A DNA stretch of 64,000 nucleotides, taken from NCBI GenBank assembly GCA_947589495.1, contig CANQAK010000003.1, positions 218 through 64,217 on the forward strand, written 5' to 3'. The DNA comes from an uncultured Bacilli bacterium (GTDB lineage Bacteria > Bacillota_I > Bacilli_A > RF39 > UBA660). A program made the position numbers and the translations under genes. This document shows positions 4,436-59,966 of this stretch, piece after piece. The notes below the pieces were generated by a model. It did no database searches, had not been told where the DNA came from, and saw only the letters and a list, made by a program, of their open reading frames with translations. The first letter of the stretch is position 1. Every line of letters begins with the position of its first letter.

Positions 4436-5587
4436 TTAATCTTGATTACCTTCTCTATTAATTTGAGATAAAGTTTTTATTTCTAATTTATATTTTGTTA
4501 GTTTACTAGCAAGTCTTATATTACTTCCCTTTTTACCAATAGCTAAACTTAAATTATCATCAGTAACAATTGCTAAAGCTTCTTTTTTTACTTCATCTTT
4601 TATGTTAACAATAACATTTTTAGCAGGGCTTAAAGCATTGGCAATAAAAGTTTTAGGATCTTCATCATATAATATTAAATCTATTCTTTCACCAACATTA
4701 TCTTTATCATTTGTTTTAACCATATTACCATTTAATTCTTTTAAAATACTAGCAATACGGCTTCCTTTTTCTCCTATACATGAACCAATGGCATCAATTC
4801 TTTCATTAGTAGAATAAACTGCTACTTTACTTCTATTACCAGCATCTCTAGCAACACCATATAAAATAATTTCTCCGTCTTGTAATTCAGGAATCTCTGA
4901 TTCAAATAAACGTTTAACAAAACCATAATGTTTTCTTGAAGTCATAATTACTGGTCCTTTACTTCCACTTTCAACTTTAGTTATGTATACTTTAATACTT
5001 GAACCCATTTTAATAGATTCCCCAGGAATAATTTCTGATTTTGGTAAAATTGCTCTTGTTCTTCCTAAATCAATATAATAATTTTTAGCATCTTCCATGG
5101 CTACAAGCCCTAACATTAATTCAAATTCTTTATCTTGGAATTCTTCAATAATACTATTTTTTTCAGCTTCTCTAATTTTTTGAGTAACTACTTGTTTAGC
5201 AGTACCAGCAGCAACACGACCAAAATCTTTAGGAGTTACTTCTTTTTCAATTGTATCGCCAACTTTAGCATTAGGATCTATTTCTCTAGCTTCCTCTAAT
5301 AAAATTTGAGCATCAATATTAATTTTAGGAGGTATTTCTACAACATTTCCTTCTTCATCAACAGTTTCAGTTCCTTCATCAATTTCAGGAACTACTACTA
5401 AATAAGAAAATACTTTAATTTCTCCTGTTTCTCTATTAATATCTACTCTTACATTAGTCTTTGAATCAAAATTTTTCTTATATGCTGTTTGTAAAGCTAA
5501 TGTCATGGCTTCATATACAACATCTGGACTAATTTTCTTTTCTTTAACAATTGTATCTAGTGCTTTTATAAATGCTTTACTATCCAT
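4436..5587 (-). CDS. nusA: Transcription termination/antitermination factor NusA
   Basis: 383 aa with NusA N-terminal, S1 and KH (GxxG: IGKKGSNIR) regions in the canonical operon position. Confidence 0.95.
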   Translation of the reverse strand: MDSKAFIKALDTIVKEKKISPDVVYEAMTLALQTAYKKNFDSKTNVRVDINRETGEIKVFSYLVVVPEIDEGTETVDEEGNVVEIPPKINIDAQILLEEAREIDPNAKVGDTIEKEVTPKDFGRVAAGTAKQVVTQKIREAEKNSIIEEFQDKEFELMLGLVAMEDAKNYYIDLGRTRAILPKSEIIPGESIKMGSSIKVYITKVESGSKGPVIMTSRKHYGFVKRLFESEIPELQDGEIILYGVARDAGNRSKVAVYSTNERIDAIGSCIGEKGSRIASILKELNGNMVKTNDKDNVGERIDLILYDEDPKTFIANALSPAKNVIVNIKDEVKKEALAIVTDDNLSLAIGKKGSNIRLASKLTKYKLEIKTLSQINREGNQD

Positions 5588-5591
5588 TTTT

Positions 5592-5846
5592 TTAACCTCT
5601 TTCCTTACTTATTACATCTAAAATATATTCACTTTGACATACATCATACTCATCTACAATTGGATTAACTATATGAGTTGCCTCAACTATACCATCTAAA
5701 TCAATTCCACCGACTTTATCAAGTACTACTGTTAAAAATGTATATTTACCTTTTTTTTGAATAAATATATCATCCACAATTATTTCTTTTTTAGCTAACG
5801 CATCACTAAGGGCGTTTTTTAAATCTTCTAATTTTTCCATATCCAC
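5592..5846 (-). CDS. rimP: Ribosome maturation factor RimP, N-terminal domain only
   Basis: 84 aa aligning to the N-terminal half of RimP and ending at YILDVISKERG (compare LEVSSPGxxRPL). Lies directly upstream of nusA. Confidence 0.6.
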   Translation of the reverse strand: MDMEKLEDLKNALSDALAKKEIIVDDIFIQKKGKYTFLTVVLDKVGGIDLDGIVEATHIVNPIVDEYDVCQSEYILDVISKERG

Positions 5847-5929
5847 CTCAAATTAATAATAAAAGCAGGATTGTAATCCCACTCAAATTTCAATAATATT
5901 ATATCAAATGATTAAAAAATAGACAAGTA

Positions 5930-6724
5930 TTACTTTCTTAAATCTAGTTTTCTACTTAATTCTTCAAATTTTTCATTATTATTAATATGTTCTTTTCCCA
6001 AATTTCTTATAAATTCATAATTTTTATATACATCTTGTATACTTACTAAAAAGCATCTTCCTGTCACAAAAGGACTTGCAAAAAATATACCAGCATTAGA
6101 AATGCTACTTTCAAATATTTCAGTAATATCTTCATTTACATATAAATCTTCAATTTTTTTAATACCTTTAGAGTATAAATAAGTAGTTAAGTCATTTAAA
6201 TTATTTTCATAAGATTTTTGTAAATTAGTTAGTAATTCTTTATCTATTTTTTCTTTTACTTCATCTAAATGAGTTAACTTATTAATTGGAATTTGAAATT
6301 CTTTACTTTCAGGAACAATTATTCCGCTTGAATCATCACCATAGATTCCAAAAAAACGCCAGTCACATATTTCATATATTCCATAACCCGCATGTTCAGT
6401 TAATACATCATCAGGGATAATATATTCACAAATCCATACAGGATCTTTTTCATATCCATTACTTCTAGCAACAAATTTTATCTTAAATAAAGCTTCATCT
6501 AAATAAGCATAAAATGTTTTAAATCCTTTATGACATCTTCTATTACCATTAAATTTACAATAATTAAAATATCTATTTAAATTATTTGAAGGAATTTCCA
6601 TATAACCTAAATCATAAAAAATTTTCTCTGGTGTATTTATACTATGAGATTTATAATTTGAAATAAAATAACTACTTTCTGGTATTGGTATTATTCTATA
6701 TACTAGTGCCAAAATAACCCCCAT
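5930..6724 (-). CDS. Hypothetical protein
   Basis: 264-aa ORF with no recognisable motif. Confidence 0.5.
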   Translation of the reverse strand: MGVILALVYRIIPIPESSYFISNYKSHSINTPEKIFYDLGYMEIPSNNLNRYFNYCKFNGNRRCHKGFKTFYAYLDEALFKIKFVARSNGYEKDPVWICEYIIPDDVLTEHAGYGIYEICDWRFFGIYGDDSSGIIVPESKEFQIPINKLTHLDEVKEKIDKELLTNLQKSYENNLNDLTTYLYSKGIKKIEDLYVNEDITEIFESSISNAGIFFASPFVTGRCFLVSIQDVYKNYEFIRNLGKEHINNNEKFEELSRKLDLRK

Positions 6725-6836
6725 CTCTTTCCAAAAATGATATTATACACGAAAATTTTATTTTAGCAAGTTATTTTAATATAATTTACTCATACAAAAA
6801 AACATTATTAACAATTGTAATAATGTAAACAATTTA

Positions 6837-7674: not shown

Positions 7675-8232
7675 CTAGTAGCCTTTATTTTTATAATATT
7701 CATATAATTCTTTAAATCTATTAAAATGAACAACTTCTCTTTGTCTTAAAAATAAAAGTGGTGCTAAAACATCTTCATCGTTTGTTAAATCAATTAAGTT
7801 TTCATATACTGCTCTTGCTTTTTGTTCAGCAGCCATATCTTCCATTAAATCTGCAATTGGATCAGCTGTAACGGCAAAATATGTTGCTGTAAAAGGTACT
7901 CCTGATGCATCAACTGGATAAATTCCTTTATTATGATCAGCATAATATGATGAAAGTCCTGCTTCTTCTAATTCTTTTAATGTCGCATTCTTAGTCAATT
8001 GGTGAACCATTGAACAAATCATCTCGCAGTGCCCAAGTTCTTCCGTACTAATATCGTTTAAAAGAGCTTTACCTTTGTCATCTGGCATAGTAAATTTTTG
8101 ACTAAAGTAACGCATTGCAGCAGCAAGTTCACCATTGGCTCCTCCAAATTGAGTTAATAAATATTTAGCCATTCTTAAATCTTTTTTACTAATACTTATT
8201 GGATAATTTGTGTGCTTAACATATTTAAACAT
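7675..8232 (-). CDS. cotJC: Spore coat protein CotJC / manganese catalase family
   Basis: FGGANGELAAAMRYFSQ and EELGHCEMI di-metal ferritin-like motifs. Adjacent to a CotJB-like gene. Confidence 0.85.
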   Translation of the reverse strand: MFKYVKHTNYPISISKKDLRMAKYLLTQFGGANGELAAAMRYFSQKFTMPDDKGKALLNDISTEELGHCEMICSMVHQLTKNATLKELEEAGLSSYYADHNKGIYPVDASGVPFTATYFAVTADPIADLMEDMAAEQKARAVYENLIDLTNDEDVLAPLLFLRQREVVHFNRFKELYEYYKNKGY

Positions 8233-8719
8233 AAATATTACCCCCTAAATTTTCCCATGACCATGGTCCATTAATCCATTCATATTTTTCACCACTAGTT
8301 TCATTTATTGTAAGTGGTCCATAACTTTTAATATATTCTTTTTTAGCTTCTTTTTCTTCTTTAATAAATTCTTCTAATAACATTAATGCATTTCTATCTT
8401 CTGGATGTAAATCTAAATATAGATTCATATCGTTAATAGCAAATGAATATTGCATAACATTAAATAATTTAGCTTCTCTATCATTTCTAGGTTTAATATT
8501 TACATATGTTAAATTCTTATATGGTTTATATTCATCTTTAAACATGTTTCCTCTTAAAAATCCTTCTTTGGCAGTTAAAAATTTACTAGAACTCATGTTA
8601 CTCATACTTTTCATATTACTCATGCTACCCATATTAGACATATCTTGTTTAGTATTTTGTAATCCTGCTAAACTTAATAATGAAAAATCTAAATCGATAT
8701 CGTTATTGTCAAATAACAT
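8225..8719 (-). CDS. cotJB: CotJB-like spore coat protein with an N-terminal CotJA-like segment and an MSN repeat
   Basis: The C-terminal half (FAINDMNLYLDLHPED...YGPLT) matches the CotJB pattern. The upstream segment EGFLRGNMFKDEYKPY resembles the CotJA core. Confidence 0.65.
   Translation of the reverse strand: MLFDNNDIDLDFSLLSLAGLQNTKQDMSNMGSMSNMKSMSNMSSSKFLTAKEGFLRGNMFKDEYKPYKNLTYVNIKPRNDREAKLFNVMQYSFAINDMNLYLDLHPEDRNALMLLEEFIKEEKEAKKEYIKSYGPLTINETSGEKYEWINGPWSWENLGGNIYV
8588..8641 (-). repeat. Six imperfect 9-nt tandem units (ATG AGY AAY) encoding MSN/MGS/MKS
   Basis: Read directly from the sequence: DMSNMGSMSNMKSMSNMSS within the cotJB-like ORF. Confidence 0.8.
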
Positions 8720-8777
8720 AAAAAATTACCTCCTACATTAATGTATGAGATAATTATTTAGCCTTCCATGCTTTCGC

Positions 8778-9458
8778 CTATTTTATTGCTTCAAATTCAT
8801 AAATATCTAATAATTCTTCTAAATCATCAGCTTTTAAAGATGTTCCATTAACACCATCTAAAATGTTAGTATCTAATATTTCCCCATTTCTAACATATAT
8901 TATGGCAGGTATTTGTTCTAAATCTTTTATATCTAAACTTTTTTCTATTGTTTCTAAGTAATTATTATCACTTTCTTTTAATTTAGTTAAATCAACATAA
9001 TAAAATATATCATTTAATTTATATTTATCTATTAATCTTTTTAAACCCTTCTCTAAATTATAAACATCTTCATCTTTAGTATATCCTAAATAAATAAAAT
9101 AAGATGATGGTGCTTCTTGCCTTATCTGACTTAAAGAATTTAAGTCATTGATGCTTGAATCAACAGTATTTGATGATATTAAATAACTTGTCATTAACTT
9201 TTCTTCTTCTTTTACTTGATACCATTTAAAGATATATAATACTAAAAGTATTGCTCCTAAAAGTATCGCTAGAGCTATTATATAATTTTTAGAATCTATT
9301 TTCTTTTCAATAACTACTTCTTTTGTCATTTTTTCTTTAGGAGCTTCTTTTTTTACATTGCTACTTTTGGTAGCATTACTCCTTTTTTTAGTAGCAGTTT
9401 TAGTTGATGTTTTAACATTTTCTTTTTCTTTAGTAACATCAGTCTTTTTTTGACTCAT
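8778..9458 (-). CDS. Membrane-anchored thioredoxin-fold-like protein lacking CxxC
   Basis: K-rich N-terminus, one TM, and a C-terminal pattern (FIYLGYTKDED...IPAIIYVRNGEILD) that is thioredoxin-like but has no cysteines. Confidence 0.4.
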   Translation of the reverse strand: MSQKKTDVTKEKENVKTSTKTATKKRSNATKSSNVKKEAPKEKMTKEVVIEKKIDSKNYIIALAILLGAILLVLYIFKWYQVKEEEKLMTSYLISSNTVDSSINDLNSLSQIRQEAPSSYFIYLGYTKDEDVYNLEKGLKRLIDKYKLNDIFYYVDLTKLKESDNNYLETIEKSLDIKDLEQIPAIIYVRNGEILDTNILDGVNGTSLKADDLEELLDIYEFEAIK

Positions 9459-9526
9459 TATTTATCATATCCTTTCATACTAATTTTAACACATTCCATT
9501 TTTATTTGTAAACTTCTTTTCTTAAC

Positions 9527-9562
9527 AAAAAGAAAGTATTTTTATTTTCTAAATACTTTCCC
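9527..9562 (-). terminator. Terminator after modular protein A
   Basis: Hairpin GAAAGTATTT / AAATACTTTC followed by TTTTTG on the minus strand. Confidence 0.6.
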
Positions 9563-9579
9563 TAAATTTTAATTTTTTT

Positions 9580-12045
9580 CTAACTCTCTATGTAGAAAGG
9601 ATTATCATATGTTCCTGAACCTGCAATTTTAACATTGTTCTTTAGATAGAAGACAGGACGAACCGAACGCATAGCGCTCAAATCGAAGATATAGATTTTG
9701 CCATCTATATCCACACCCCATGCATTGAAGTAAACACCTGTACTGAAACGCCCAATACGCGTCATGGTCCATTCTTGATAAGTTGTACTACTTGATTCAT
9801 TATTAATTTCATGTATCCAGCTTCCTTGACATGTTGTGTAATTATTTTTGCAATTGTATGTATGTCCTGTTGCACTTATTGCATATAAATAGTCACTTAC
9901 ATACATCAATCCTATTGATGATTCTTCACTTGTTTGTTGCCACTTTGTTCCTTCACTTTTTGGTACTAAAATTCCATTTGCATTATAATATTGTGTTGCT
10001 ACCTGTCCACTTTCTATTTTATATACTTCTTCTGATGTTATTGTACCCATATATTCTTCTCCTATGTCTCCATACCACCATTTTTGTGGTTCTATTTTTT
10101 CTTGTACTGTACTATCTAATTTACTTAAGAATGAACCACTTCCATCATTCAAAGTTTTATACATGTCACTTTGTTCCCATGCTGGACAGCCTTCTTTTGA
10201 ACCACAATAATTACTCTTTGATGAATCATTAGTTGATTTACTATTCCATGCAAACATATTTGTTCCACTTTTATTATATCTTATTTGTTTTATTACCTTT
10301 ATATTTCCTTCTGGAGTAATTCCTATGATTCGATACATATTATCATCGTATCCACTACTACTTGCATTGCAACTATTTTTTCCAACTTCTTTCAAACATA
10401 TATAGTTTTTTACATTTTTTCCCTTTAATGTATCTGCTCCTTGATATCTATACATTCCCCCAACTAAAGTTTTACTTAAAGTCTCTGTATCATCTGCCAA
10501 TCTTAACGTTTTTTCTTGATCTGTTGGTATTACTTCTGTTAATGTATATGGATCATCTACTGTTCCACTTCCATATAATGTTATATTACTCTTTAAATAG
10601 AAAACTGGGCGAACCGCATATCCAGTACTCAAAACATTATAATCAATATTTCCATTTGAAGTTACATACCATCCACCATAACGATTATCAGAATTACTAT
10701 ACAATCCCATACGCGTCATGATCCATTCATATCTTTCATTTCCAGACGTCGCTATTCCATTATTACTCATATGTATCCAACTGGATTTACATGTACTGTA
10801 ATCACTTTTTCTACAACTTGTATTATGTCCTAAACTGCTTTCTGCATATGCATAGTCATGTATATACATTAATCCTATATTGGCTTGTATTTTATTTGTC
10901 CAAATCCGATCTTCTATATATTTTCCATCATCTGGACTATAATATTTAGTATTTTCTTTACCTGCTTCTATTTTATATACTTCCTCTGTTGATATACTGG
11001 AATCTATATAATCCTTACTTATATCTCCGTATATCCATTGTTGTGGTTCTATTATATTTTTTATTTCTTCTTTTAACGAATTATAATAATCTTCATTTAA
11101 TGTACTATATATTTTACTTTCTGGCCATTCTTTATTTACAGAATTATCATCCCACCATTTTATCGCATTTCCATATCTTGTTTGTTTTATGACTTTTATA
11201 TTTCCTTCAGGAGTGATTCCTATAATCCTGTACATTTCATCACTTTGATTTGAACATTTTCCTTCTAAACATAAATAATTACTTTTTACTTCATTATTTG
11301 TTCCTTGATATCTATACATTCCTCCAACTAAAGTATCACTTAATGTGTTATTTGTATCATCACTTTGTAATTTCTTTACTAATTTTGCTCCACTATCTTC
11401 TCCACATTTTAAGTTATCTGCACTTATTGTTATATCTAACTCTTTATCTGCTAAATAATCTTGTTCATCATTCTTTTTATTAACTAAATATGCATATGCA
11501 TCTATTTTTGATGAACTATTTCCTGTTACTTTAAATGTTATTCCTTCATATACTTTTTTACCTTCATCTTTTATATCAAATAAATCTAGTTCTTGTTCTT
11601 CAAATGTATTATTTTCATCTCCCTTTAAATGTAAAAATAAATCTCCTTGTTCTAATGCTTCTCCCATTGAACCTTGTGTATTAGTCATTGTTACTGTTAT
11701 ATCTGCTGTACATTCATATTTATCTTCATTCGTTGCATCAGTTATTTCAAATTTAGTTATGGTATGTGTTCCTTCTTCTTCAGTTAACACATAATTCTTT
11801 TCATCATCTGCATAATAATTTCTTGCATTATTTGGTGCCATATCTTCTTCATCTACTATTATTTTTAACTTTGGTGTTGGTACTGAAAGAGTTACTAACC
11901 CTGATTCTTCTGTTTGTAGTGTTATTACACTACTATTTGATGTATTTATTACTCCCATATTAAAGTAAGCATATGTAGCTCCAATTACTAACACTATCAT
12001 TATTGCTACTCCAATTATTAATTTTACTTTTGTTTTTTTATCCAT
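9580..12045 (-). CDS. Secreted modular protein A: SipW/TasA-type signal, beta-rich N-domain and two lectin-like modules (family member 1)
   Basis: N-terminus KVKLIIGVAIMIVLVIGATYAYFNM. Two internal repeats each contain LVGGMYRYQG, MYRIIGITPEGNIKVIKQ, IGLMY.(H/S)DY.YA, EW(I/T)MTR, VRPVFYLK and GSGT..(D/N)P(F/Y). Confidence 0.8.
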   Translation of the reverse strand: MDKKTKVKLIIGVAIMIVLVIGATYAYFNMGVINTSNSSVITLQTEESGLVTLSVPTPKLKIIVDEEDMAPNNARNYYADDEKNYVLTEEEGTHTITKFEITDATNEDKYECTADITVTMTNTQGSMGEALEQGDLFLHLKGDENNTFEEQELDLFDIKDEGKKVYEGITFKVTGNSSSKIDAYAYLVNKKNDEQDYLADKELDITISADNLKCGEDSGAKLVKKLQSDDTNNTLSDTLVGGMYRYQGTNNEVKSNYLCLEGKCSNQSDEMYRIIGITPEGNIKVIKQTRYGNAIKWWDDNSVNKEWPESKIYSTLNEDYYNSLKEEIKNIIEPQQWIYGDISKDYIDSSISTEEVYKIEAGKENTKYYSPDDGKYIEDRIWTNKIQANIGLMYIHDYAYAESSLGHNTSCRKSDYSTCKSSWIHMSNNGIATSGNERYEWIMTRMGLYSNSDNRYGGWYVTSNGNIDYNVLSTGYAVRPVFYLKSNITLYGSGTVDDPYTLTEVIPTDQEKTLRLADDTETLSKTLVGGMYRYQGADTLKGKNVKNYICLKEVGKNSCNASSSGYDDNMYRIIGITPEGNIKVIKQIRYNKSGTNMFAWNSKSTNDSSKSNYCGSKEGCPAWEQSDMYKTLNDGSGSFLSKLDSTVQEKIEPQKWWYGDIGEEYMGTITSEEVYKIESGQVATQYYNANGILVPKSEGTKWQQTSEESSIGLMYVSDYLYAISATGHTYNCKNNYTTCQGSWIHEINNESSSTTYQEWTMTRIGRFSTGVYFNAWGVDIDGKIYIFDLSAMRSVRPVFYLKNNVKIAGSGTYDNPFYIES

Positions 12046-12123: not shown

Positions 12124-12152
12124 ATTATATTGGTTATATAACCATTAGTCAA
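12124..12152 (-). promoter_or_regulatory. Sigma-A-type promoter of gene A with a palindromic operator in the spacer
   Basis: The minus strand reads TTGACT-N17-TATAAT. The spacer contains the perfect 14-bp palindrome TGGTTATATAACCA (12131-12144). Confidence 0.65.
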
Positions 12153-17715: not shown

Positions 17716-17755
17716 AAAACACTTCAATTTTTATCTTTGAAGTGTTTTATTTTTT
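17715..17755. terminator. Bidirectional terminator between the ATPase and modular protein B
   Basis: Hairpin AAAACACTTCAA / TTGAAGTGTTTT with flanking A and T runs. Confidence 0.65.
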
Positions 17756-20150
17756 ATGATGCTATGTAGAATGGATCAGAAGTTGTACCTGCTCCTTCTA
17801 ATTTTACATCATTCGTTAGATAGAAGACTGGACGAACTGCATAAAAATAATTAAAACTTCCACCTCCGACAGTCCCACTCACGAGAACCGCCCATGCATA
17901 GAAAGTATTGCCCGAACTACCTTGACCAAGTCGTGTCATAATCCATTCATCATTAGAATTATTTCCATTATTACTCATATGTATCCAACTAGTTTTACAA
18001 TTTGCATAATCTACTATACAACTTGATGTTGATCCTGTTCCACCTAATGCATATGCATAATCATGTATATACATTAATCCAATTGGTACTAATTCTGTCC
18101 TTTTTGTCCATTTTTGATCTGTGATACTTTTTTTTGTCAAAGGTTCCAAATATTTTGTTGTTGCTTGACCTGTTTCTATCTTATATGCTTGTTCTGCTGT
18201 TATATGCTCACTATCTACTAAATCATTACCTATATCTCCATACAACCATTTTTGTGATTCAATTTTTTCTTTTATTTCACTATTTAAATTATTATAAAAA
18301 GTTGTATTTAATGACGTATATACATAGCTATTTATCCACTCTATATTTGTTGTATAACTACTAAACCATGTAGTTGTATCTCCATATTTCGTTTGTTTTA
18401 TTACTTTTATACTCCCTTCTTCAGTTATTCCTATAATTCTATACATGTTATCATCGTAACCATTAGTTTTTGCACTAGTACATCCATTTGATCCTACTTC
18501 ACTTAAACATATATAATTGTTTACTTTATTACCATTTAATGTATCTGATCCTTGATATCTATACATTCCTCCGACTAATGTCGAGCTTAACGCATTAGTT
18601 GTATCATATTCTCTTAAATAATTTTCTTGCTCTGTTGGTATTACTTTGGTTAATGTGAATGGATCTTCTGTTGTTCCACTCCCATATAATTGGATATCAT
18701 TTTTCAGATAGAAGACTGGGCGTACCACATACTCAGCACTCAAGTAGCTATAGTTGAACCGTCCATCCGAACTCACAAACCACGCACCGAAGTAAGGGTT
18801 CGGGCTACTATACCTACCACGACGCGTCATAGTCCATTCATATTGCTCCTTTCCGGTTGTTGCTCCACCATTATTACTCATGTGTATCCAACTTGTTTTA
18901 CAATCTGCATAATCTTGTATACAACTTGATGTTGATCCTGTTCCACCTAATGCATATGCGTAGTCATGTATATACATTAATCCTATATTGGCTGATACTT
19001 TTTCTGTCCATTTTTGATCTTCGATATAATCTCCACTATCTGGGTCATAATATTTTGTATTTTCTTGCCCTGTCTCTATTTGATATGCTGTATCTGTAGA
19101 TATATTAGAATTTATATACTCATTACTTATATCTCCATACATATATTCCCATTCTTGTATTTTTCCCTGTATTATTGTATCTAAACTATTATAGAAATTT
19201 GTATTTAGTGTTTCAAATATATCTGCATCTAGCCACTCTTTATTATTCTCTATTCCTGAATAACCTGTCCACCACTTCATTGCACTTCCATACCTTGTTT
19301 GTTTTATGACTTTTATATTTCCTTCAGGGGTTACTCCTATAATTCTATACATATCATCTGATCCTGAAGAACATTTTCCTTCTAAACATAAGTAATTATT
19401 AACTTGATCGTTAGTACCTTGATATCTGTACATTCCTCCGACTATTTCTTTACTTAATCCACTATTTTTTTGTGATTTTAAATATGCTGTTACTGGACCA
19501 TCTACATTATTTACACATTTTAGGTTTTCTGTTTTAATTGTTAAATTTAATGCCTTACCTGCTAAATGATTTTGTTCATTTTCTGTATTTTCTATATAAG
19601 CATACGCTTGTATATCTTGTGATGTGTTTCCCTCTATATTAAATGTTACATTACTATATGTTTTTGTTCCAATTGTTGATAGTTCACTTAAATCTAATTC
19701 TTCTTCATTTAAACTTGCTCCACTTAAATGGATAAACATATCTCCTTCTTTTAATGCTGCTCCCATTGAACCATCTGTTACATCTAATTCTAATTTTATA
19801 TCTGCTGTACATTGGTATTTAGCTGTCTCTTTTCCATCTGTTACTGTTAATCGTGCTATAGAATATGTTGCTGCATTTTGTTCTGTTTTATATGATTCTG
19901 TGTCTAAATTGGTTGCATAATACTTTCTTTGATTTGCTAAAGACATATCTGATGCTTTTAGTTTTATATATAACTCTGATACTGGACTTGATAATGTTAC
20001 TAATCCATTATTTCTTGCTTGTACTCTTATGACACTACTATTTCCTAAAGTTGTTACTCCCATTGTAAAGTAAGCATATGTTGCTCCTACTACTAAGACA
20101 AATAAAACTGCTACTGCTATTATTATTTTTACTTTATTTTTCTTATCCAT
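17754..20150 (-). CDS. Secreted modular protein B (family member 2)
   Basis: N-terminus KVKIIIAVAVLFVLVVGATYAYFTM. Same N-domain as A and two modules with the same motif series. Confidence 0.8.
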   Translation of the reverse strand: MDKKNKVKIIIAVAVLFVLVVGATYAYFTMGVTTLGNSSVIRVQARNNGLVTLSSPVSELYIKLKASDMSLANQRKYYATNLDTESYKTEQNAATYSIARLTVTDGKETAKYQCTADIKLELDVTDGSMGAALKEGDMFIHLSGASLNEEELDLSELSTIGTKTYSNVTFNIEGNTSQDIQAYAYIENTENEQNHLAGKALNLTIKTENLKCVNNVDGPVTAYLKSQKNSGLSKEIVGGMYRYQGTNDQVNNYLCLEGKCSSGSDDMYRIIGVTPEGNIKVIKQTRYGSAMKWWTGYSGIENNKEWLDADIFETLNTNFYNSLDTIIQGKIQEWEYMYGDISNEYINSNISTDTAYQIETGQENTKYYDPDSGDYIEDQKWTEKVSANIGLMYIHDYAYALGGTGSTSSCIQDYADCKTSWIHMSNNGGATTGKEQYEWTMTRRGRYSSPNPYFGAWFVSSDGRFNYSYLSAEYVVRPVFYLKNDIQLYGSGTTEDPFTLTKVIPTEQENYLREYDTTNALSSTLVGGMYRYQGSDTLNGNKVNNYICLSEVGSNGCTSAKTNGYDDNMYRIIGITEEGSIKVIKQTKYGDTTTWFSSYTTNIEWINSYVYTSLNTTFYNNLNSEIKEKIESQKWLYGDIGNDLVDSEHITAEQAYKIETGQATTKYLEPLTKKSITDQKWTKRTELVPIGLMYIHDYAYALGGTGSTSSCIVDYANCKTSWIHMSNNGNNSNDEWIMTRLGQGSSGNTFYAWAVLVSGTVGGGSFNYFYAVRPVFYLTNDVKLEGAGTTSDPFYIAS

Positions 20151-20207: not shown

Positions 20208-20236
20208 ATTATATTGGTTATATAGCCAATAGTCAA
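20208..20236 (-). promoter_or_regulatory. Sigma-A-type promoter of gene B with a palindromic operator in the spacer
   Basis: The minus strand reads TTGACT-N17-TATAAT. The spacer holds TTGGCTATATAACCAA, a 16-bp palindrome with one mismatched pair. It lies in the divergent intergenic region shared with the HTH gene. Confidence 0.65.
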
Positions 20237-25376: not shown

Positions 25377-25577
25377 CTACTTTTGAGAATTTTTATTATC
25401 TAAAATTAAGTATATTATTTCGGTTATTTCCTCATCTATTTTAGAAAGTGCTGTAAGTTCTTCTAATTCTTTTTTATATTCTATTATATTTTCTAAATCT
25501 ACTTCTTTTTTTATCATATTAAATACTATTCTTACTTTTTGTTTACTTTTTCTTAATTTATTTATTATTTCTTCCAC
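25377..25577 (-). CDS. Small hypothetical ORF inside the IS, downstream of the transposase
   Basis: 66-aa helical K/E-rich ORF overlapping the transposase 3' end. Confidence 0.3.
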   Translation of the reverse strand: MEEIINKLRKSKQKVRIVFNMIKKEVDLENIIEYKKELEELTALSKIDEEITEIIYLILDNKNSQK

Positions 25578-26851
25578 TTTTACTTCCTCCTCCTAATTGT
25601 TTATTAAATATGTATAATATCCTTCTTCTAAAAAAGTTAAAATTTTTATATCCAAAGCCATTCCTTTTTATTACTTTTATTTTATTATTTATTCCTTCAG
25701 TAAATCCATTACTATATCTTTTATCTATGAAAGAATTTACTATATATTCTATCCATCTCTCTATTGTTCCTGATGCCTCAACAAATTCTTCTATATAACT
25801 TTTTCTACATAAATCTATCCAATTCCTTATTTGTTCTTCGGCATCTTCATATGTTGCATGATTTATTATATCTAAAAATAATTCTTTTAAATTGTATCCT
25901 CTTTTTAATTCTTCTGATATCTCTAATATATCTCTTAATATATCCACAGGTAACATTTTTACCATATGACCATTTTTATATCTTTCTACTTCTACCCACC
26001 ATTCTATTTCATTTCCATACTTTCTTAACAGATTTACATTCTTTTTGTTTTTTAAAAGTTTATACTCTTTACTTCTTTCATCATAACTTTTTTGTAATCT
26101 TATTCTTATTTTATCTAGTGCATCCATTATATATCTGGTATAATGAAAGCGGTCAACAACATATTTTGCTTTTGGAAACATTACTGTTGTGACTATTAGA
26201 TATGGTTCGTACATATCACTTATGACGAACTCAACGGAATATCTATTTTCGGTATATGTAAAATACTGAATTAGATATTCTTTTTTTCTATTCGGCAATA
26301 TATCTAATACTTTCTTATGTATCGGATCATTTATTATAAATGCATATTTCCCTTCTTTAGTATCTGCTTTAAATTCATCAAATGATATTACTCTTGGTAA
26401 GTTCTTTAAGTGTTCTGGTATTGTACTTGTTGCTTCTTCTAATTCCCTTCTCACAATATATTTTGAAACATGATTCTCGTTTGCTATATAATTTATTGTT
26501 AAATTATAATCCAGTAAATCTTTTCTTATCTCTATCCCTTACTGCATTACTTATACTTCCATTTATACTTGTTAAAGCAAGTTCTTCTGTAAATATTTTA
26601 TTACATTTATAACAATGAAATCTCCTTTTATGTATTATTAAATTTACTTCCTGTCCACAGCTATCTAAATATACACTTCTTATTGGTTTTAATTTCCCAT
26701 GAACACTACTTGTAAAATTATTACATACAGGACACCTTACTTTCTTCTTTCTACTTCTTATTTCAACCTCTATTTTTCCTTTCTCTTCTCTTATTTTCAT
26801 TATTTCATATTCCTTCCTATTTAATCTTAATAAGGTATAATATTCTTTCAA
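25558..26851 (-). pseudogene. ISL3 transposase split into two frames (N-terminal zf/HTH part 26504-26851, DDE part 25558-26454)
   Basis: The N-terminal ORF has CPVCN...CYKC zinc-ribbon motifs. The C-terminal ORF has the ISL3 DDE pattern (ISFDEF..., DMYEPY, VVDRFH). The frame changes near 26455-26520. Confidence 0.7.
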
Positions 26852-32234: not shown

Positions 32235-34400
32235 TTATTTTATGTAGAATGGATCAGTGGTTGATCCTGAACCTCCAAGTTCTATATCAGACTTCAGATA
32301 GAAGACAGGGCGAACCGCATTCGTAACGTCCAAGGAGTTGCGGTAGACAGCGCCAGTCTGACCCAAATACCAAGCATAGAAGACAGTACTTGAGCTACTA
32401 TACCGACCTACACGTGTCATGGTCCATTCAGAATCAGATGCATTTCCATTTTGTTTCAAATGAATCCACCCATTATCTATACATTTTTTATTGGAACTGT
32501 CTGTTTTTGAATAATGACATCCATCTTCTTTTGATTGGTAATAATAATCATGTAAGTAGATTAATCCTATGTTACCTGTTTTTTTTCCATCCCATTTTTT
32601 TGTTATGATTCCATTTTCTTTTTCTGATGGTAATTTTCCATAGTATTGACTATTTTGTTTCCCTGTTTCTATTTGATATAAATTTTCTCCTGTTAAATTT
32701 GTTACATATTGATATTCTATATCACCATACCACCAGTCCCATTCCTGAATTTTATTTTTTATTTCTTCACTTAGTGAATTGTAAAATGTTTCATTTAGTG
32801 TTGTATACATTTCACTATTTGGCCATTCGGGACAGCCATTTGTTTGATCACATTTATATTTTTCATTTGAATCAGTTTCACTATATTTCGTGTTCCATCT
32901 ATATGTACTTCCATATTTTGTTTGTTTTATGACTTTTATATTTCCTTCTGGGGTTATTCCTATGATTCGGTACATATCTTCACTTTTATATCCACATTTT
33001 TCATCATTTAGTTTTCCTAAACATATATAGTTATCTACACTACTTCCTTGATAACGATACATTCCTCCGACTAAGGTTGAACTTAACGTTTTATTCGAAT
33101 CTTTATCTCTTAAATAATTTTCTTGATTTGTTGGTTCGGTTAATGTAAATGGATTATCTACTGTTCCACTTCCATATAATTTTATATTATTCTTTAAATA
33201 GAAAACTGGGCGCACCGCAAACGGAGCGTGCAAGCCGTTGCTGTTGACATGGCCAAGTGCATTTACATACCACGCGCCAAAGAAAGTGCTCGCGCCATTA
33301 TGCCGACCTATACGCGACATGGTCCATTCGTTATCAGATGTATTCCCATTTTGCGACAAATGCATCCAACCATCATTCATACATTTTTTATATACACTAT
33401 CTCCTTTTTCATAATGACAATTGTTTTGTTGTGATTGATAATAATAATCATGTAAGTATATTAATCCTATATTAGCTTTGTCGCTCATTTTTGTCCATTT
33501 TATATCTTTTGTCGATTCTATTAATGTTCCACTTTTATCATAATATTGTGTTGATGCATTTCCTGTTTCTATATTATACACTTCATCTGCTGTAGTTAAC
33601 GTTCCAAGATAATCATATCCTATATCTCCATACCACCATTTTTGTGGTTCTATTTTATTTTGTATATTATCATTAAGTGAATTGTAAAATGTGTCATTTA
33701 ATGTTTTATATATTTCACTTTGTTCCCATGTTGGACAATCTTCACCTGTACAATAATAATCTTCAGAACTATAGTTTGAATCTACACTATATTTTGTATC
33801 CCATTTATATTTCCCTATACTGGTTTGTTTTATAACTTTGATATTTCCTTCAGGAGTGATTCCTATGATTCGATACATATCATCTGATTTTTCAGAACAT
33901 TTTCCTTCTAAACATAAGTAATTATTTACTTGGGCATTTGTTCCTTGATATCTATACATTCCTCCAACTGGTTCAGAACTTAACCCATTACTCTTTTTTA
34001 ATTGTTCTATTAATTCTTTTGCATTACTCTTATCAAAATATACATAACAATATACTGCTTGATTTGTTCTTACACTAAATTTTTTATCTGTATATGTTAA
34101 TACATTTGCTACTGCTAATCCTTTAGAATCTATACATCCTGATTTATCTGCATTATAATTATATCCTTCTGTTGGAAAATCATTTTTAGTACTTTGTTTA
34201 TATTCTCCATTTTCTTCTTGTAACATAATTGCAAACATTCCACTTTTTGATGAATTATTATTAACAAGTTTTACTTCATCTAATTGTGTTTCTTTATCCG
34301 ATAATTTATTGTTTATTAAAAATATACTACTTACTATTGTTAGTATTACTATTATTAATATTATATATATTCTATTTTTTGTATTAAGTTTATTTTTCAT
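32235..34400 (-). CDS. Secreted modular protein C (family member 3, different N-terminal domain)
   Basis: Signal anchor IYIILIIVILTIVSSIF, a ~130-aa N-domain, then two modules with PVGGMYRYQG/LVGGMYRYQG, MYRIIGITPEGNIKVIKQ, IGLIYLHDYYYQS, EWTM(S/T)R, VRPVFYLK and GSG..(D/N)PF. Confidence 0.8.
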   Translation of the reverse strand: MKNKLNTKNRIYIILIIVILTIVSSIFLINNKLSDKETQLDEVKLVNNNSSKSGMFAIMLQEENGEYKQSTKNDFPTEGYNYNADKSGCIDSKGLAVANVLTYTDKKFSVRTNQAVYCYVYFDKSNAKELIEQLKKSNGLSSEPVGGMYRYQGTNAQVNNYLCLEGKCSEKSDDMYRIIGITPEGNIKVIKQTSIGKYKWDTKYSVDSNYSSEDYYCTGEDCPTWEQSEIYKTLNDTFYNSLNDNIQNKIEPQKWWYGDIGYDYLGTLTTADEVYNIETGNASTQYYDKSGTLIESTKDIKWTKMSDKANIGLIYLHDYYYQSQQNNCHYEKGDSVYKKCMNDGWMHLSQNGNTSDNEWTMSRIGRHNGASTFFGAWYVNALGHVNSNGLHAPFAVRPVFYLKNNIKLYGSGTVDNPFTLTEPTNQENYLRDKDSNKTLSSTLVGGMYRYQGSSVDNYICLGKLNDEKCGYKSEDMYRIIGITPEGNIKVIKQTKYGSTYRWNTKYSETDSNEKYKCDQTNGCPEWPNSEMYTTLNETFYNSLSEEIKNKIQEWDWWYGDIEYQYVTNLTGENLYQIETGKQNSQYYGKLPSEKENGIITKKWDGKKTGNIGLIYLHDYYYQSKEDGCHYSKTDSSNKKCIDNGWIHLKQNGNASDSEWTMTRVGRYSSSSTVFYAWYLGQTGAVYRNSLDVTNAVRPVFYLKSDIELGGSGSTTDPFYIK

Positions 34401-34575
34401 AACTTAACCCTTCCTTTACTACCTATTATGTATAATTTATTTATCTTTTATACATTGTAACGACTTACGGTATTTATAACATTATTCTTAATATAACTAT
34501 AAATTATCTAACTTAATTTGTCAATAACAACAGATGTGTTTTACAAAAAATTAGTAAACTAAAAAAAACAATTGT

Positions 34576-39247: not shown

Positions 39248-39934
39248 CTACAAACTTATATAACATTTTTCTTTAATAAATTTCTTTATTTCTTTTTCAT
39301 CTTTTCCTTCATAATATAAAATAAGTAATTTTTTAAATTGTTCAGTTAATTCTGCTGGTATTACTATTATTCCTTTTCCTTTAGAAATTAAATAATGATT
39401 ACAATAAATTACTGATGTCCTTTTATTACCATCAATAAATATTTGACTTTTCATCGTATATAATAATAAATTTATAGCCTTATCAACAATACTTATTTTT
39501 TTAGAAAAGATATTTTGTAATTCTTCTTTTATAACGGTTTCAATTGGTAATTTTGGTTCCCAACTAGTTCCTCCAATTTTAACTGGAACATTTCTAATTT
39601 TTCCCGCTGAATAGTAAAAACCTTCTTCCACTATTTTATTTATTTCACATAACAAAGCAAAATTAGTTTTAGATAAAATTACATTTTCATTTAATATAAA
39701 TTCCCAAGCATGCTTTAAATTTACTATTTTTAAATTATCTTCAGATGTCATATTACTAACTTTTCTACCTTCAATAATATTTTTAACATCTATAAACGTA
39801 GTCACTACACCTTCTAAAATTGCTTGTTTATAAATAGTTTGAGCTAAATACTTTTTGGCAAAATCTATACTTTGTTTTACTTTTTCGGAAAGTTCACTTT
39901 CTTTATAATCTATTATTTTAATTTTTTCATTCAT
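39248..39934 (-). CDS. Fic/Doc family protein with a non-canonical active-site motif
   Basis: Reads QIFIDGNKRTS where Fic/Doc proteins have HxFx(D/N)(G/A)N(G/K)R. The catalytic His position is Gln. Confidence 0.6.
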   Translation of the reverse strand: MNEKIKIIDYKESELSEKVKQSIDFAKKYLAQTIYKQAILEGVVTTFIDVKNIIEGRKVSNMTSEDNLKIVNLKHAWEFILNENVILSKTNFALLCEINKIVEEGFYYSAGKIRNVPVKIGGTSWEPKLPIETVIKEELQNIFSKKISIVDKAINLLLYTMKSQIFIDGNKRTSVIYCNHYLISKGKGIIVIPAELTEQFKKLLILYYEGKDEKEIKKFIKEKCYISL

Positions 39935-41126: not shown

Positions 41127-41537
41127 CTACTTAAATAATTCGAAAATATATTTTATCAATTTTTGTTTTCCATAATGAATAGTTACTATACCTACTTCAT
41201 TATCATACAAAACGTTATCAATTGTTAAATTTATTTGTTCATATATTCCATTTTCAATTAATTCATATTCCCCAAAACTATTAACTTTATAAGTTAATTT
41301 ATGCCCATTAAAAGTTAAATCATGATTATCTTTAATTATTTGTGATTGTTCACTACTAACTTTAACTATTAATAATCCATTATTATAAATACCGTAACAT
41401 TCTAATTTTTTATATACAGTAACTTTAAAACTTATAATAATTAAAATTACGAAAACAACACATAATAATAAGATTATTCTATGAAATTTAATTTGAGAGA
41501 GTTTTTTTAAACTATCATAGTTAATTTGAAAATTCAT
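41127..41537 (-). CDS. Small single-TM protein co-transcribed with the exporter (miniature HlyD/ComB-like accessory, or an immunity protein)
   Basis: 136 aa with an N-terminal TM (IILLLCVVFVILIIISF) and a beta-rich C-terminus. Its start overlaps the 3' end of the ABC gene. Confidence 0.45.
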   Translation of the reverse strand: MNFQINYDSLKKLSQIKFHRIILLLCVVFVILIIISFKVTVYKKLECYGIYNNGLLIVKVSSEQSQIIKDNHDLTFNGHKLTYKVNSFGEYELIENGIYEQINLTIDNVLYDNEVGIVTIHYGKQKLIKYIFELFK

Positions 41538-43581
41538 GATTACATCTTCCTAATTCAATAATATTTTGAAAATTTTTAGTTTGGTTTTTATGAGAAATAT
41601 AAATAATTGTTTTATCATGAAAATATTCTTTAATATTTTTAATAATAATACTTTCTAAAGTTTTATCAACTTCACTTAAAGCTTCATCTAAAATAATAAT
41701 ATTAGCATTCTTAATAAGGCCTCTAGCTAAAATAATTCTTTGTTTTTCACCACCTGAAATATTTTTAGAATTAGCTTCAATCAAAGAATTATATCTAAGA
41801 GGTTTTTTAGAAACTATTTTTTCTAATTCACATATTTTACATACGTTATTTAAATATTCTTCTGAAACTTTTCGACCAACTAAAATATTTTCTAAAATAG
41901 TTCCTGTAAAAAGTTCTTCATTTTGTGAAACATATAAAATATTTTCTCTTATAGTTTTCATATTAATATCTTTAATATTTTTACCGTCCAGATAAATATC
42001 TCCTAAAAAATTTAGATTTTCTTTATAAAGAAGTTTACAAATAGTACTTTTACCAGAACCAGATAAACCATTTAATAAAGCATGAGTTCCCTTACTTATT
42101 TTAAAATTCAAATTTTTTAAAATATAATCATAATTATTATAAGAATAACTCACATTTTTAAAAGTAATTTCTCCATCTAACTCTATATAATCTTCTTCTA
42201 ATTTTTCTTCTTCAATATTAATAAACTCTGTAATTTTAGTATAAGTAGCTTTTATGTAATTATATTTAGGTAATAAGTTAATTATATTTTTCACAGGTTC
42301 TACAAAATAGCTAAGAATGATATTAAATGTAAATAAATTAACAACATTTAAATCTCCTTTTAAAATATACCAAAGTCCAAATGAATTTATTAAGAAAAAG
42401 CAACTTTCTAAAAGAAAATCTTTTCCTAAATTAGTTATGTTAAAAAAACTATTAAATTGGTAATTATTAAATAGAAACTTAGATAAATATTTTTCAATCT
42501 TGTCTAATATTATTTTACCAATATTTAAATTTTTAATGCTTTCTAGCATTGTAATATTTTCAACTAAAATTGAATTAAAATCAGTTTGATAATTTATATT
42601 TTCTAAAACTTTTTTATACAATATTTTGCTTATTATAAAGCCATAAATTGCATAAATAGCTATAAATATAAATAATATCAAAAATAATTTACTATTAATA
42701 ACAAATAAAATAACTATTGATATTAGCATCATTAAAGTATCTAAAAAACCTGATACAAATATATCTGAAAATAAACTTTTAATATTTGCAAGTTCATCAA
42801 CTCTCGTTATAATTTCTCCAGTTGTTCTACTCTTGATGCTTTTTAAAGGAAGAGAAAATATATGTTTTAAAAATTCCGGATATAAGTAAACATCAACTAT
42901 ATTACTTAAATGATTTTCATAATATGTTCTTATATAGTACATAAATATTTTACTTAATGTAAATATTCCAAAAATGATTACTAAATACTTAAATATATGA
43001 CTATTAAAAGTTAGAAAACCACTACCAATTTTTAAATAGTAACTTCCTATAATAGATAAAATTGTCCATATAAGACTAGTTATAATTATTTTAACAATGA
43101 GAAACTTTTCCTTCTTTATAATATTTAAAAATAATTTACTAATGGATAGTTCTTTATTCATTTTAATAATATTACTTCTTGGATAAGCCAAAATAATATT
43201 ACCACTAAAAACTTCATTAAATTCTGTTAAAGTCATTTTTTTATTTCCAATACCTGGATCCATTAAATATACAGTATCTTTATAAACATTTTTGACTACA
43301 ACAAAATGTTCAAATCCATTTTTAAGTCTTAAATGAGCTATAAAAGGAAATTTTAAATTCTTACTTTGGATGTCATGCTCCAAAACCCCTGATGAATCAA
43401 ATCCCCATTTTTTAAAAGCCGAAACAATATGATAAGCATTAGTTCCATTTATATTAGTATAAGTATCATCTCTTAATTTTTCTAAAGAGATATACCCATC
43501 ATAATAAATAAACAGCCACTGCATACAGCACACTCCACAATCTTTAAAATCATTTTGAAGAACTGGTTTTATATTCTTCAT
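41521..43581 (-). CDS. Bacteriocin-processing ABC transporter with an N-terminal C39 peptidase domain
   Basis: C39 motifs QNDFKDCGVCC and HFVVVKNV...YLMDPG, six TM segments, Walker A GLSGSGKST, signature ISGGEKQR and Walker B IIILDEALS. Confidence 0.9.
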   Translation of the reverse strand: MKNIKPVLQNDFKDCGVCCMQWLFIYYDGYISLEKLRDDTYTNINGTNAYHIVSAFKKWGFDSSGVLEHDIQSKNLKFPFIAHLRLKNGFEHFVVVKNVYKDTVYLMDPGIGNKKMTLTEFNEVFSGNIILAYPRSNIIKMNKELSISKLFLNIIKKEKFLIVKIIITSLIWTILSIIGSYYLKIGSGFLTFNSHIFKYLVIIFGIFTLSKIFMYYIRTYYENHLSNIVDVYLYPEFLKHIFSLPLKSIKSRTTGEIITRVDELANIKSLFSDIFVSGFLDTLMMLISIVILFVINSKLFLILFIFIAIYAIYGFIISKILYKKVLENINYQTDFNSILVENITMLESIKNLNIGKIILDKIEKYLSKFLFNNYQFNSFFNITNLGKDFLLESCFFLINSFGLWYILKGDLNVVNLFTFNIILSYFVEPVKNIINLLPKYNYIKATYTKITEFINIEEEKLEEDYIELDGEITFKNVSYSYNNYDYILKNLNFKISKGTHALLNGLSGSGKSTICKLLYKENLNFLGDIYLDGKNIKDINMKTIRENILYVSQNEELFTGTILENILVGRKVSEEYLNNVCKICELEKIVSKKPLRYNSLIEANSKNISGGEKQRIILARGLIKNANIIILDEALSEVDKTLESIIIKNIKEYFHDKTIIYISHKNQTKNFQNIIELGRCNHEFSN

Positions 43582-47849: not shown

Positions 47850-48791
47850 ATGATAAATAAAAGAATAATGAAAGAAAGAACAAAATTAGATAAGTATGAA
47901 AATTATTTGAATGATTCTTTAACTACTTTAGAGAAAATTAAAATTTTAAAAGATTTATATATGGAAGTAAAAGAATTTTCACTAAAATGTTGGCTTCAAG
48001 AACCAGAAGCATTAAGTGATTTTTGGATTATTAAATTTAAAATTCTTGATTGTGAAAATTATTTAGCTAATAAGTTAATAACGGATGTTAAACCTCTTCT
48101 AAATTTTAATTTTCCTCAATACCTTACTTTAAATTCTTTAAGTGATGAAGAAATACTTGATTATTTAATTAGTAAAACTAGAAAATATTTAAAAAATATA
48201 TCTTTAAAAGATGAAAAAGAATTTGAAAAATTACCATTAACTAATTTTTGTAAAATGGCTTCAAAAAATATCATGAGACTTTGTAAAAATTATAATATTA
48301 ATGCTAAATTATTAAGAATTAACCCTGGTTTTACTTACAAAGAACAACTTTATGATGGTTCTGGTTATCATTATTTTGTTATTGTTACTTTAAATAACCA
48401 AAAATATTTATTAGATGCTACTTATAATCAATTCTTTTTATTAGAAAGAAGTATTTTATCTCGCTTAGGAGTATTAGAGCTTACAGGTTGTAATCCTGGA
48501 ATATTTATGTATATAAAAGAAGAAAGAAAAAGGATTGCAGAAAAAATATTAAAAGATGGATGGATTAAATTAGAAAGTGATACTTTAAAACATTATTTAG
48601 ATGGTTTTGCACTTTCATTTAGAAATGGCCTATACTATGAAATGACTCATGATTTTTCTTATGAAACTAATTATACAACGCAAAATTATGAAGACTTTTT
48701 AAATGATGAAGATACTCAATTAGCTCATGAAGGAAAATTAGTTTTAGGTTATCAAACAAGACCACTTAAAGAGCCAAAATTAAAATTTTAG
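47850..48791 (+). CDS. Transglutaminase-like (Cys-His-Asp) fold protein, tandem paralog 1
   Basis: Candidate triad NFCKMAS ... GYHYFVIV ... LLDATYNQF. No signal peptide. Confidence 0.45.
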   Translation: MINKRIMKERTKLDKYENYLNDSLTTLEKIKILKDLYMEVKEFSLKCWLQEPEALSDFWIIKFKILDCENYLANKLITDVKPLLNFNFPQYLTLNSLSDEEILDYLISKTRKYLKNISLKDEKEFEKLPLTNFCKMASKNIMRLCKNYNINAKLLRINPGFTYKEQLYDGSGYHYFVIVTLNNQKYLLDATYNQFFLLERSILSRLGVLELTGCNPGIFMYIKEERKRIAEKILKDGWIKLESDTLKHYLDGFALSFRNGLYYEMTHDFSYETNYTTQNYEDFLNDEDTQLAHEGKLVLGYQTRPLKEPKLKF

Positions 48792-53080: not shown

Positions 53081-53081
53081 T

Positions 53082-54843: not shown

Positions 54844-54844
54844 C

Positions 54845-55663: not shown

Positions 55664-55747
55664 TCTAAATCACCTCACAAAAAAACAATCATTAAATTAA
55701 CACAAAAAAATTGTACTAATTTTTAAATGATTGTTTTTTAATTTTAT

Positions 55748-55774
55748 CTTATAAATTTCTTAATATTTACTTAA
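55748..55774. promoter_or_regulatory. Three tandem 11-bp CTTA-N7 direct repeats (candidate VanR box) upstream of vanW
   Basis: CTTATAAATTT CTTAATATTTA CTTAA, with CTTA at 55748, 55759 and 55770. Matches the box at 58549-58575 at 25 of 27 nt. Confidence 0.5.
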
Positions 55775-58492: not shown

Positions 58493-58548
58493 AATTAAAA
58501 CTCCTCACTCAATAATATCATAAAACTAAAAATTTTTATTAATTTAAA

Positions 58549-58575: not shown

Positions 58576-58579
58576 ATTA

Positions 58580-59935: not shown

Positions 59936-59966
59936 AACATTTATTTTACAGTTCATCACCTAAATT

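Follow-up and report, generated by a model that had tools for sequence, protein, structure and literature searches.

Putatively exported proteins with C-terminal DUF6273-type modules are encoded at four loci of an uncultured gut Bacilli bacterium

A 64,000-nucleotide (nt) stretch of contig CANQAK010000003.1 (assembly GCA_947589495.1, positions 218 to 64,217), from an uncultured Bacilli bacterium of the RF39/UBA660 lineage and hereafter called the window, carries four genes whose products contain a large module that, on profile and structural matches, belongs to the DUF6273 family. With moderate confidence, the products of these genes, named A to D, are explained as exported, N-terminally tethered proteins with C-terminal DUF6273 binding heads that have been diversified by paralogy. 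In this explanation, the fold and export steps stand on much firmer ground than the binding function, which is the most likely role of the heads given the sequence characteristics described below.

All four open reading frames (ORFs) reported in a first-pass annotation of the window were recovered by translation on the minus strand, and alignment together with a module-specific profile confirmed seven tandem-type modules, six complete (270 to 298 amino acids [aa]) and one partial. The genes and their parts are as follows.

9580-12045, minus strand: gene A (ORF and translation), 821 aa, with a signal peptide, a jelly-roll N-domain, and two tandem DUF6273-type modules
11968..12045, minus strand: signal of A, residues 1 to 26, with a K-rich start, a hydrophobic core, and GATYA↓YF; predicted SipW/TasA-type cut (arrow) after Ala26
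11341..11967, minus strand: N-domain of A, residues 27 to 235, with residues 28 to 38 disordered, then a beta-sandwich (jelly-roll); conserved Cys112 and Cys214
10534..11340, minus strand: module A_M1, residues 236 to 504, 424.8 bits with the module profile
9583..10476, minus strand: module A_M2, residues 524 to 821, ending at the C terminus of A, 435.9 bits with the module profile
17754-20150, minus strand: gene B, 798 aa, architecture as in A
20073-20150, minus strand: signal peptide of B
19455-20072, minus strand: N-domain of B
18645..19454, minus strand: module B_M1, residues 233 to 502, 438.0 bits with the module profile
17757..18587, minus strand: module B_M2, residues 522 to 798, 409.5 bits with the module profile
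32235-34400, minus strand: gene C, 721 aa, with an N-terminal hydrophobic anchor, a small N-domain, and two modules
33981-34400, minus strand: N-terminal part of C, residues 1 to 140
33135..33980, minus strand: module C_M1, residues 141 to 422, 453.4 bits with the module profile
32238..33083, minus strand: module C_M2, residues 440 to 721, chosen for the AlphaFold model
63680-64000, minus strand: gene D (partial), covering the C-terminal 106 residues of one module, the remainder lying beyond the window end

Pairwise identity among the seven modules was 39 to 63% (39 to 50% for the partial module of D against the others), and the module profile gave 350 to 450 bits on each copy, far above chance. 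Twenty-two alignment columns were invariant in every module sequence covering them, and the motifs VGGMYRYQG, MYRIIGIT.EG.IKVIKQ, IGLMY.HDY.Y, W.H, EW.M.R, RPVFYL, and G.G...P occurred in the order previously described for them. The window is very AT-rich (GC content of ∼20 to 31% in 2-kb windows, and ∼24% for the source organism), and the standard bacterial code applies, with 15 to 17 TGG codons per gene and no in-frame TGA in A, B, or C. Together the four genes account for 7,350 nt, or 11.5% of the window.

DUF6273, DUF1566, and C-type lectins had been suggested as possible relatives of the module. The first was borne out. Pfam DUF6273 (PF19789; gathering cut-off, 23.5 bits) matched A and C above the cut-off, at 25.5 and 31.4 bits, respectively, with B just short at 21.4 bits, and precomputed PF19789 matches are held for the database proteins P0001, P0003, P0006, and P0011. 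Since a Pfam DUF6273 match was obtained, even at an expect (E) value of ≤1, in just 6 of 43 relatives, the modules of the window are, by this measure, a peripheral and divergent DUF6273 subfamily. The 172-position Pfam model starts matching ∼55 residues into the module, which at ∼280 aa is ∼100 residues larger than the Pfam domain; judged from this offset, the module comprises the DUF6273 core, several insertions, and an extension at the N terminus (VGGMYRYQG..NY.C....C).

An AlphaFold2 model of C residues 440 to 721, built from a 66-sequence alignment, had a predicted local distance difference test score (pLDDT) of 92.6 and a predicted template modeling (TM) score of 0.92. Foldseek comparison of this model with BFVD, a database of predicted viral structures, returned 19 matches at an E value of <1e−3, with TM scores of 0.45 to 0.53 over ∼250 to 300 columns. 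The named matches were mostly phage DUF6273 proteins (best E value, 6e−10; probability, 1.0), and the modeled fold is one shared with other DUF6273 proteins. A few matches were annotated as tail or receptor-binding proteins, one of them as receptor-binding, and some labels in the list appear spurious; DUF1566 phage proteins were found low in the list. Among solved structures, the top Foldseek match was the C-terminal DUF1566 domain of Legionella Lcl (8q4e), with an E value of 0.18 over 55 columns, followed by several animal C-type lectin domains with TM scores of ∼0.3 over 55 to 105 columns and E values of 0.18 or worse. Searching PDB sequences with the module profile gave nothing even at an E value of 10, and neither DUF1566 (PF07603) nor Lectin_C matched A, B, or C in Pfam at an E value of ≤1. 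DUF1566 is not supported as the family of the module; a C-type-lectin-like fold is plausible for the model, being suggested by the PDB matches at scores short of significance.

The N termini divide the proteins into two types, as had been noted before. A and B start with MDKK.KVK, 14 hydrophobic residues, and GATYAYF, and beyond this common MDKK.KVK....GATYAYF start they share an N-domain of ∼210 aa at 46% identity; the N terminus of C differs from both. Using hhalign, IMIVLVIGATYAYFN of A was paired with LGLALVGGGTWAAFN of TasA at 47% identity over 15 columns (TasA residues 16 to 30, spanning the cleavage site), which sets ..VIGATYAYFN of A against ..VGGGTWAAFN of TasA. The mature TasA chain in 8AUR begins at A28. 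Because the signal of A aligns to the TasA cleavage site, A and B are predicted to be cut after Ala26, and G22, T24, A26, and F28 of A are nearly invariant in 43 relatives. Signal peptidase I substrates carry their motif after the hydrophobic core and prepilins before it; the A/B cleavage motif sits after the core. The SipW-dependent signal model TIGR04088 (NCBIfam cut-off, 19 bits) scored 13.3 bits on the whole of A and 15.2 bits on its N-terminal 240 aa, and it matched 9 of the 43 relatives (best E value, 0.017), none of them shown to reach the cut-off. The SipW/TasA-type signal proposed for A and B in the first-pass annotation is thus plausible from its alignment to the TasA cleavage site, but the dedicated profile, at 13 to 15 bits, did not confirm it.

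The scan of the window was restricted to ORFs of ≥150 aa and covered 44 of the 47, all except those at 57575-61169; no SipW gene was found among these 44. A motif scan of related loci for S26 signal peptidases gave candidates only in L059 and L069. L059 is a locus of a related assembly from rabbit gut. There, the gene at 5580-6752 encodes 390 aa with an S26 signal-peptidase domain (..ASGSMEP.., 26.8 bits) at the C terminus, and immediately downstream of it lies the gene of a family member (7937-11737) of 1,266 aa that has three module-profile matches and an N terminus ending ..SIGYSAF. This arrangement counts in favor of export.

In C, a single N-terminal hydrophobic segment without an obvious cleavage motif is followed by a domain of ∼100 aa. 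Across 217 relatives, the N terminus was an anchor in 129, a ..TYAYF.. signal in 51, and a prepilin type in 5 (for example, P0080 and P0092), with no recognizable signal in the other 32, several of which resemble truncated gene calls. The prepilin motif (G↓F(T)L.E; Pfam N_methyl, PF07963) was absent from A, B, and C. The modules of A, B, and C run to the stop codon with no C-terminal sortase motif, and no LPXTG-like motif was present in the last 60 residues of any of the 217 relatives. The proteins are acidic and contain, in every case, an even number of cysteines, most of them paired at close spacing. Export of A, B, and C is supported by their N-terminal signals or anchors and by these even, mostly paired cysteines, and nothing pointed to retention in the cytoplasm. 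With signals or anchors at the N terminus, heads at the C terminus, and no LPXTG motif, the layout would be an outward-facing one tethered at the N terminus.

A cleaved protein with no other anchor must be kept on the cell somehow, and for A and B this raises the possibility that they are TasA-like fiber subunits, in which residues 27 to 38, freed by the SipW cut, would be donated into the jelly-roll of the next subunit to give a filament decorated with lectin-like heads. TasA and AbpA both assemble by donor-strand exchange (PMC9674648, PMC9245690), an established mechanism that lends the idea a precedent. The alignment of the A signal with the TasA cleavage region, where the mature N terminus of TasA is confirmed in 8AUR, is consistent with it, as is the AlphaFold model of the A N-domain, a beta-sandwich (pLDDT, 85.6) preceded by low confidence at residues 28 to 38. 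Two cysteines are nearly invariant in alignments of A/B-type N-domains. Foldseek of this domain recovered weak, generic jelly-rolls, among them the TasA-like archaeal bundling pilus protein AbpA (7ueg; probability, 0.92; TM scores, 0.30/0.38), and hhalign paired the conserved QDYLADKELDITI of the N-domain with QNKYQGNSIKLQF in the last strand of TasA, both of which fit a fiber subunit. However, the hhalign probabilities for N-domain and TasA were not significant (4.7% and 1.9%), TasA was outside the top 50 Foldseek matches, and the jelly-rolls of RANKL and picornavirus capsids scored like AbpA. Peptidase_M73 matched 4 of 43 relatives weakly (best E value, 0.022), never passing, and no TapA-like or SipW gene lies nearby. 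A PDB sequence search with the N-domain found no match; homology searches started from the A N-domain by itself recovered at most one fragment and not even A, making such negatives unreliable. Fiber assembly, which would extend the favored explanation of tethered binding proteins and does not exclude it, is considered unlikely, with a small but real chance of being right. A broader proposal, in which the head-decorated adhesive fibers formed by A and B through TasA-like donor-strand exchange are one part of a germline-encoded repertoire of lectin-like receptor heads on interchangeable N-terminal devices (membrane anchor, type IV pilin, and SipW-cleaved jelly-roll), is speculative and given a slim chance.

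Variation within the modules was concentrated in loops. Column entropy over 122 modules revealed conserved core motifs and three hypervariable loop stretches, one of them just before RPVFYL, where a variable tip had been predicted, and the closing motif (V/I)RPVFYL was kept in 110 of the 122. A sole high-identity repeat was found in the window, within gene B:

17965..18083 (B_M2), minus strand: conversion tract of 119 nt, 93% identical to 18868-18986 (B_M1)

The mismatches in this tract (T/C, A/G, T/A, and GT/CA) are not adenine specific and carry no retroelement signature. As the tract is 93% identical while B_M1 and B_M2 share 55% protein identity overall, it indicates gene conversion between the two modules.

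DUF6273 is a common target of diversity-generating retroelements in phages, the variable region lying at the C-terminal end of the domain (PMC11792537). A to D could on that account be phage-derived receptor-binding proteins, left as prophage remnants, or retroelement targets. Their nearest structural relatives are indeed phage DUF6273 proteins, and one of their variable stretches lies near the C-terminal end, as in the phage targets (PMC11792537). Against a retroelement, neither the 44 ORFs of ≥150 aa scanned in the window nor a motif scan of 79 related loci yielded a reverse transcriptase, and the window contains no near-identical template/variable repeat pair; together with the mismatch pattern of the B repeat, this led to rejection of the modules as diversity-generating retroelement targets. 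Against phage ancestry, none of the scanned ORFs flanking the four loci is a phage gene, a pattern scan of 2.9 million viral contigs for two subfamily motifs found no relative, and the proteins bear cellular export signals. In another species (locus L055), a family member also has a thymidine kinase gene close by, as gene C does; the thymidine kinases of that species and of the window are 76% identical. Prophage origin was rejected given the housekeeping neighbors and the empty viral contig scan. Either origin is largely refuted for this window and scarcely credible here.

Under the favored explanation of tethered binding proteins, A, B, C, and D would be exported via Sec, with the enlarged C-terminal DUF6273 domains of ∼280 aa as their working parts. 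A SipW-type signal peptidase would cleave A and B after ..TYA, and the jelly-roll domain would carry them; C would keep its membrane anchor, which is not cleaved, together with a short stalk. The two heads would face outward and bind ligands such as glycans or proteins of host, dietary, or microbial surfaces, with specificities spread over the paralogues and reshuffled by gene conversion, not by targeted hypermutation.

Several points weigh against this explanation. No solved structure or demonstrated ligand was found for any DUF6273 domain, and in the IgA protease ThomasA the N-terminal DUF6273 domain has neither a solved structure nor an assigned role (PMC12402451). Foldseek gave the module no significant match to solved lectin domains (best E value, 0.18), the TIGR04088 score of A lies below the cut-off, and a SipW gene is missing from the scanned ORFs. 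In canonical C-type lectins, EPN or QPD plus WND coordinate Ca2+ and sugar; EPN, QPD, and WND occur in none of the seven window modules, with EPN in 4 and WND in 11 of the 122 related modules. Finally, E139, D179, E219, and R258 of the module are invariant or nearly so across divergent modules and could equally mark a catalytic or metal site. These residues, the ∼100 residues that the module has beyond the Pfam domain, and the fusion of DUF6273 to an M64 peptidase in ThomasA (PMC12402451) would suit modules that are enzymes or accessory domains, either relatives of the formylglycine-generating-enzyme fold or substrate positioners like the ThomasA N-domain. Searches of Pfam, NCBIfam, and PDB sequences gave no enzyme family match, however, no unrelated enzyme family was assigned to the module by hidden Markov models or structure prediction, and A, B, and C have no catalytic partner domain. 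The tandem repeats, hypervariable loops, and relatives annotated as phage tail or receptor-binding proteins also fit binding better, and an enzymatic or accessory role is judged improbable.

The family extends well beyond the window. A profile search of 1.84 billion cluster representatives identified 6,694 proteins at an E value of ≤1e−3 and 625 at ≤1e−30, and a scan of species-representative genomes identified 437 module copies, the best 80 of which were all from uncultured Bacilli or "Mycoplasma"-labeled assemblies (rabbit, goat, and other samples). At least seven family loci were present in single related assemblies. The protein database holds identical copies of A (P0001) and C (P0011) and a 798-aa counterpart of B (P0004), all on one contig of 65,369 bp, with other relatives, 43 to 74% identical, on other contigs. 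C equals P0011 and has the same RecO and thymidine kinase neighbors in a second assembly, L080; some housekeeping proteins of related assemblies are 73 to 76% identical to those of the window. In 94 relatives mapped by domain, the last module nearly always reaches the C terminus or stops a few residues short of it, and the number of modules per protein was one to three. Giant relatives hold more, as in a 4,905-aa protein with 12 profile-matching stretches. Some relatives have immunoglobulin (Ig)-like, fn3, or Big_2 domains between anchor and head, which are read from their position as stalks.

Housekeeping genes predominate on either side of the four loci, encoding FtsK, a P-type ATPase, a Clp ATPase, thymidine kinase, and RecO, and, as recognized by reading the sequence, apparently MscL. 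Promoter-like sites were identified 60 to 95 nt upstream of A, B, and C:

12124..12152, minus strand: promoter-like site of A, TTGACT-17-TATAAT, 11/12 consensus matches
20208..20236, minus strand: promoter-like site of B, TTGACT-17-TATAAT, 11/12, consensus match only
34496..34524, minus strand: promoter-like site of C, TTGACA-17-TATAGT, 11/12, consensus match only

In the A region, sites of this kind were no more numerous than in shuffled sequence, and no terminators were detected at the loci. The earlier description of each locus as a monocistronic island between core genes therefore holds for the mostly housekeeping flanks and for one promoter-like site per gene; with no terminators detected, separate transcription of the genes is not established. 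Clustering of 811 neighboring ORFs from the 79 related loci revealed no conserved neighbor, the commonest being an ABC-type ATPase (by reading the sequence) at nine loci. A secreted CxxC protein, thioredoxin-like by reading the sequence, was encoded near family members at six of the 79.

Downstream of A on the same strand lie a DUF6568 gene and then cotJB/cotJC. The DUF6568 gene (8778-9458, minus strand) is 121 nt downstream of A and encodes a 226-aa protein with one predicted membrane segment. Because CotJB, CotJC, YqfD, and SpoIIIAH are encoded in the window, the source organism is, by gene content, a spore-former. A to D might accordingly be made during sporulation and placed on the spore coat or an exosporium-like layer. 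TasA was originally described as a spore-associated protein, and the 5OF1 entry is titled "Spore coat-associated protein N"; the position of A directly upstream of DUF6568 and cotJB/cotJC would also fit. Yet spore genes lie near only one of the four loci, none is a conserved neighbor across the 79 related loci, the best promoter-like sites fit the sigma-70 consensus, and Sec-type signals or anchors suggest export from the cell and not deposition from the mother-cell cytoplasm. A spore-surface location is considered very improbable.

Other genes were identified in the window. A vancomycin-resistance-like cluster (51950-57559, minus strand) resembles vanG/vanC-type operons and consists of the following genes.

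56870-57559, minus strand: response regulator
55771-56880, minus strand: histidine kinase
54845-55663, minus strand: VanW
53800-54858, minus strand: D-Ala-D-Ala ligase family
53082-53807, minus strand: VanY carboxypeptidase
51950-53095, minus strand: alanine racemase

The sole mobile-element gene seen encodes an ISL3-family transposase (25558-26454, minus strand; Pfam DDE_Tnp_ISL3; E value, 9.5e−58). Two adjacent paralogous ORFs (47850-48791 and 48801-49754, plus strand), of 313 and 317 aa and with no Pfam match, have in common, toward their 3′ ends, a 198-nt repeat of 72% identity. The gene at 41521-43581 (minus strand) encodes an ABC exporter that begins with a C39 peptidase domain; exporters of the C39 type process and export double-glycine bacteriocins or peptides. 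A Fic/DOC family protein of 228 aa is encoded at 39248-39934 (minus strand) among housekeeping and sporulation genes.

Gut bacteria and the phages that infect them commonly encode DUF6273, and in phages it serves as a hypermutated host-recognition head. In the lineage studied here, DUF6273 heads are a major genome investment, given their share of the window and their number of loci in related assemblies, and the A to D family would provide good candidates for attachment of a herbivore-gut lineage to host, diet, or neighboring microbes. The module, being small and confidently modeled, offers a practical entry to what DUF6273 binds. If the A/B N-domain does polymerize like TasA, the result would be a new class of adhesive fiber and a hitherto undescribed type of surface filament in Gram-positive bacteria. 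Overall, the analysis amounts to a well-supported annotation of an expanded surface-protein family and proposes no new mechanism.

Among known systems, the phage DUF6273 proteins (tentaclins and the targets in Faecalibacterium prophages) are like the window modules in domain family by hidden Markov model, in predicted structure (E values to 6e−10; TM scores of ∼0.45 to 0.5), and in having a variable stretch near the C-terminal end, which in the window modules falls just before RPVFYL (PMC11792537). By analogy, a role as an exposed binding head is probably common to both. In contrast to the phage proteins, those of the window are cellular, with signal peptides or anchors, and lie outside any phage or retroelement context; their modules are tandem, ∼280 aa against the 172 positions of the Pfam model, and belong to a divergent subfamily. 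ThomasA of Thomasclavelia ramosa, a low-GC Firmicute of the gut, is, going by its description, likewise cellular and secreted, and its DUF6273 domain (residues 31 to 322) is similar in size at ∼290 aa (PMC12402451). That domain occurs once, at the N terminus, and is joined to an M64 peptidase and a sortase motif (PMC12402451), whereas in the window proteins the domain is C-terminal and tandem, with neither peptidase nor LPXTG.

Legionella Lcl (8q4e) and animal C-type lectins are the best solved-structure matches of the module, at non-significant scores, and differ in that the window modules lack a Pfam DUF1566 or Lectin_C match and the EPN, QPD, and WND motifs. TasA and camelysin resemble A and B in a signal ending ..G(A/G)T(Y/W)A↓(Y/A)F(N).. 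followed by a beta-sandwich with a flexible N-terminal stretch, and AbpA has a weak fold match to the A N-domain. Unlike A and B, which carry two C-terminal heads, TasA has none; moreover, no sipW or tapA adjoins A to D in the window, and both TIGR04088 and Peptidase_M73 remain below threshold. The domain itself is already known, and an automatic label would be "DUF6273 domain-containing protein"; what is new is the enlarged tandem head in cellular proteins, its combination with at least three N-terminal display devices, one of which pairs a TasA-like signal and a jelly-roll, and a large, retroelement-free paralogue family in an uncultured gut lineage.

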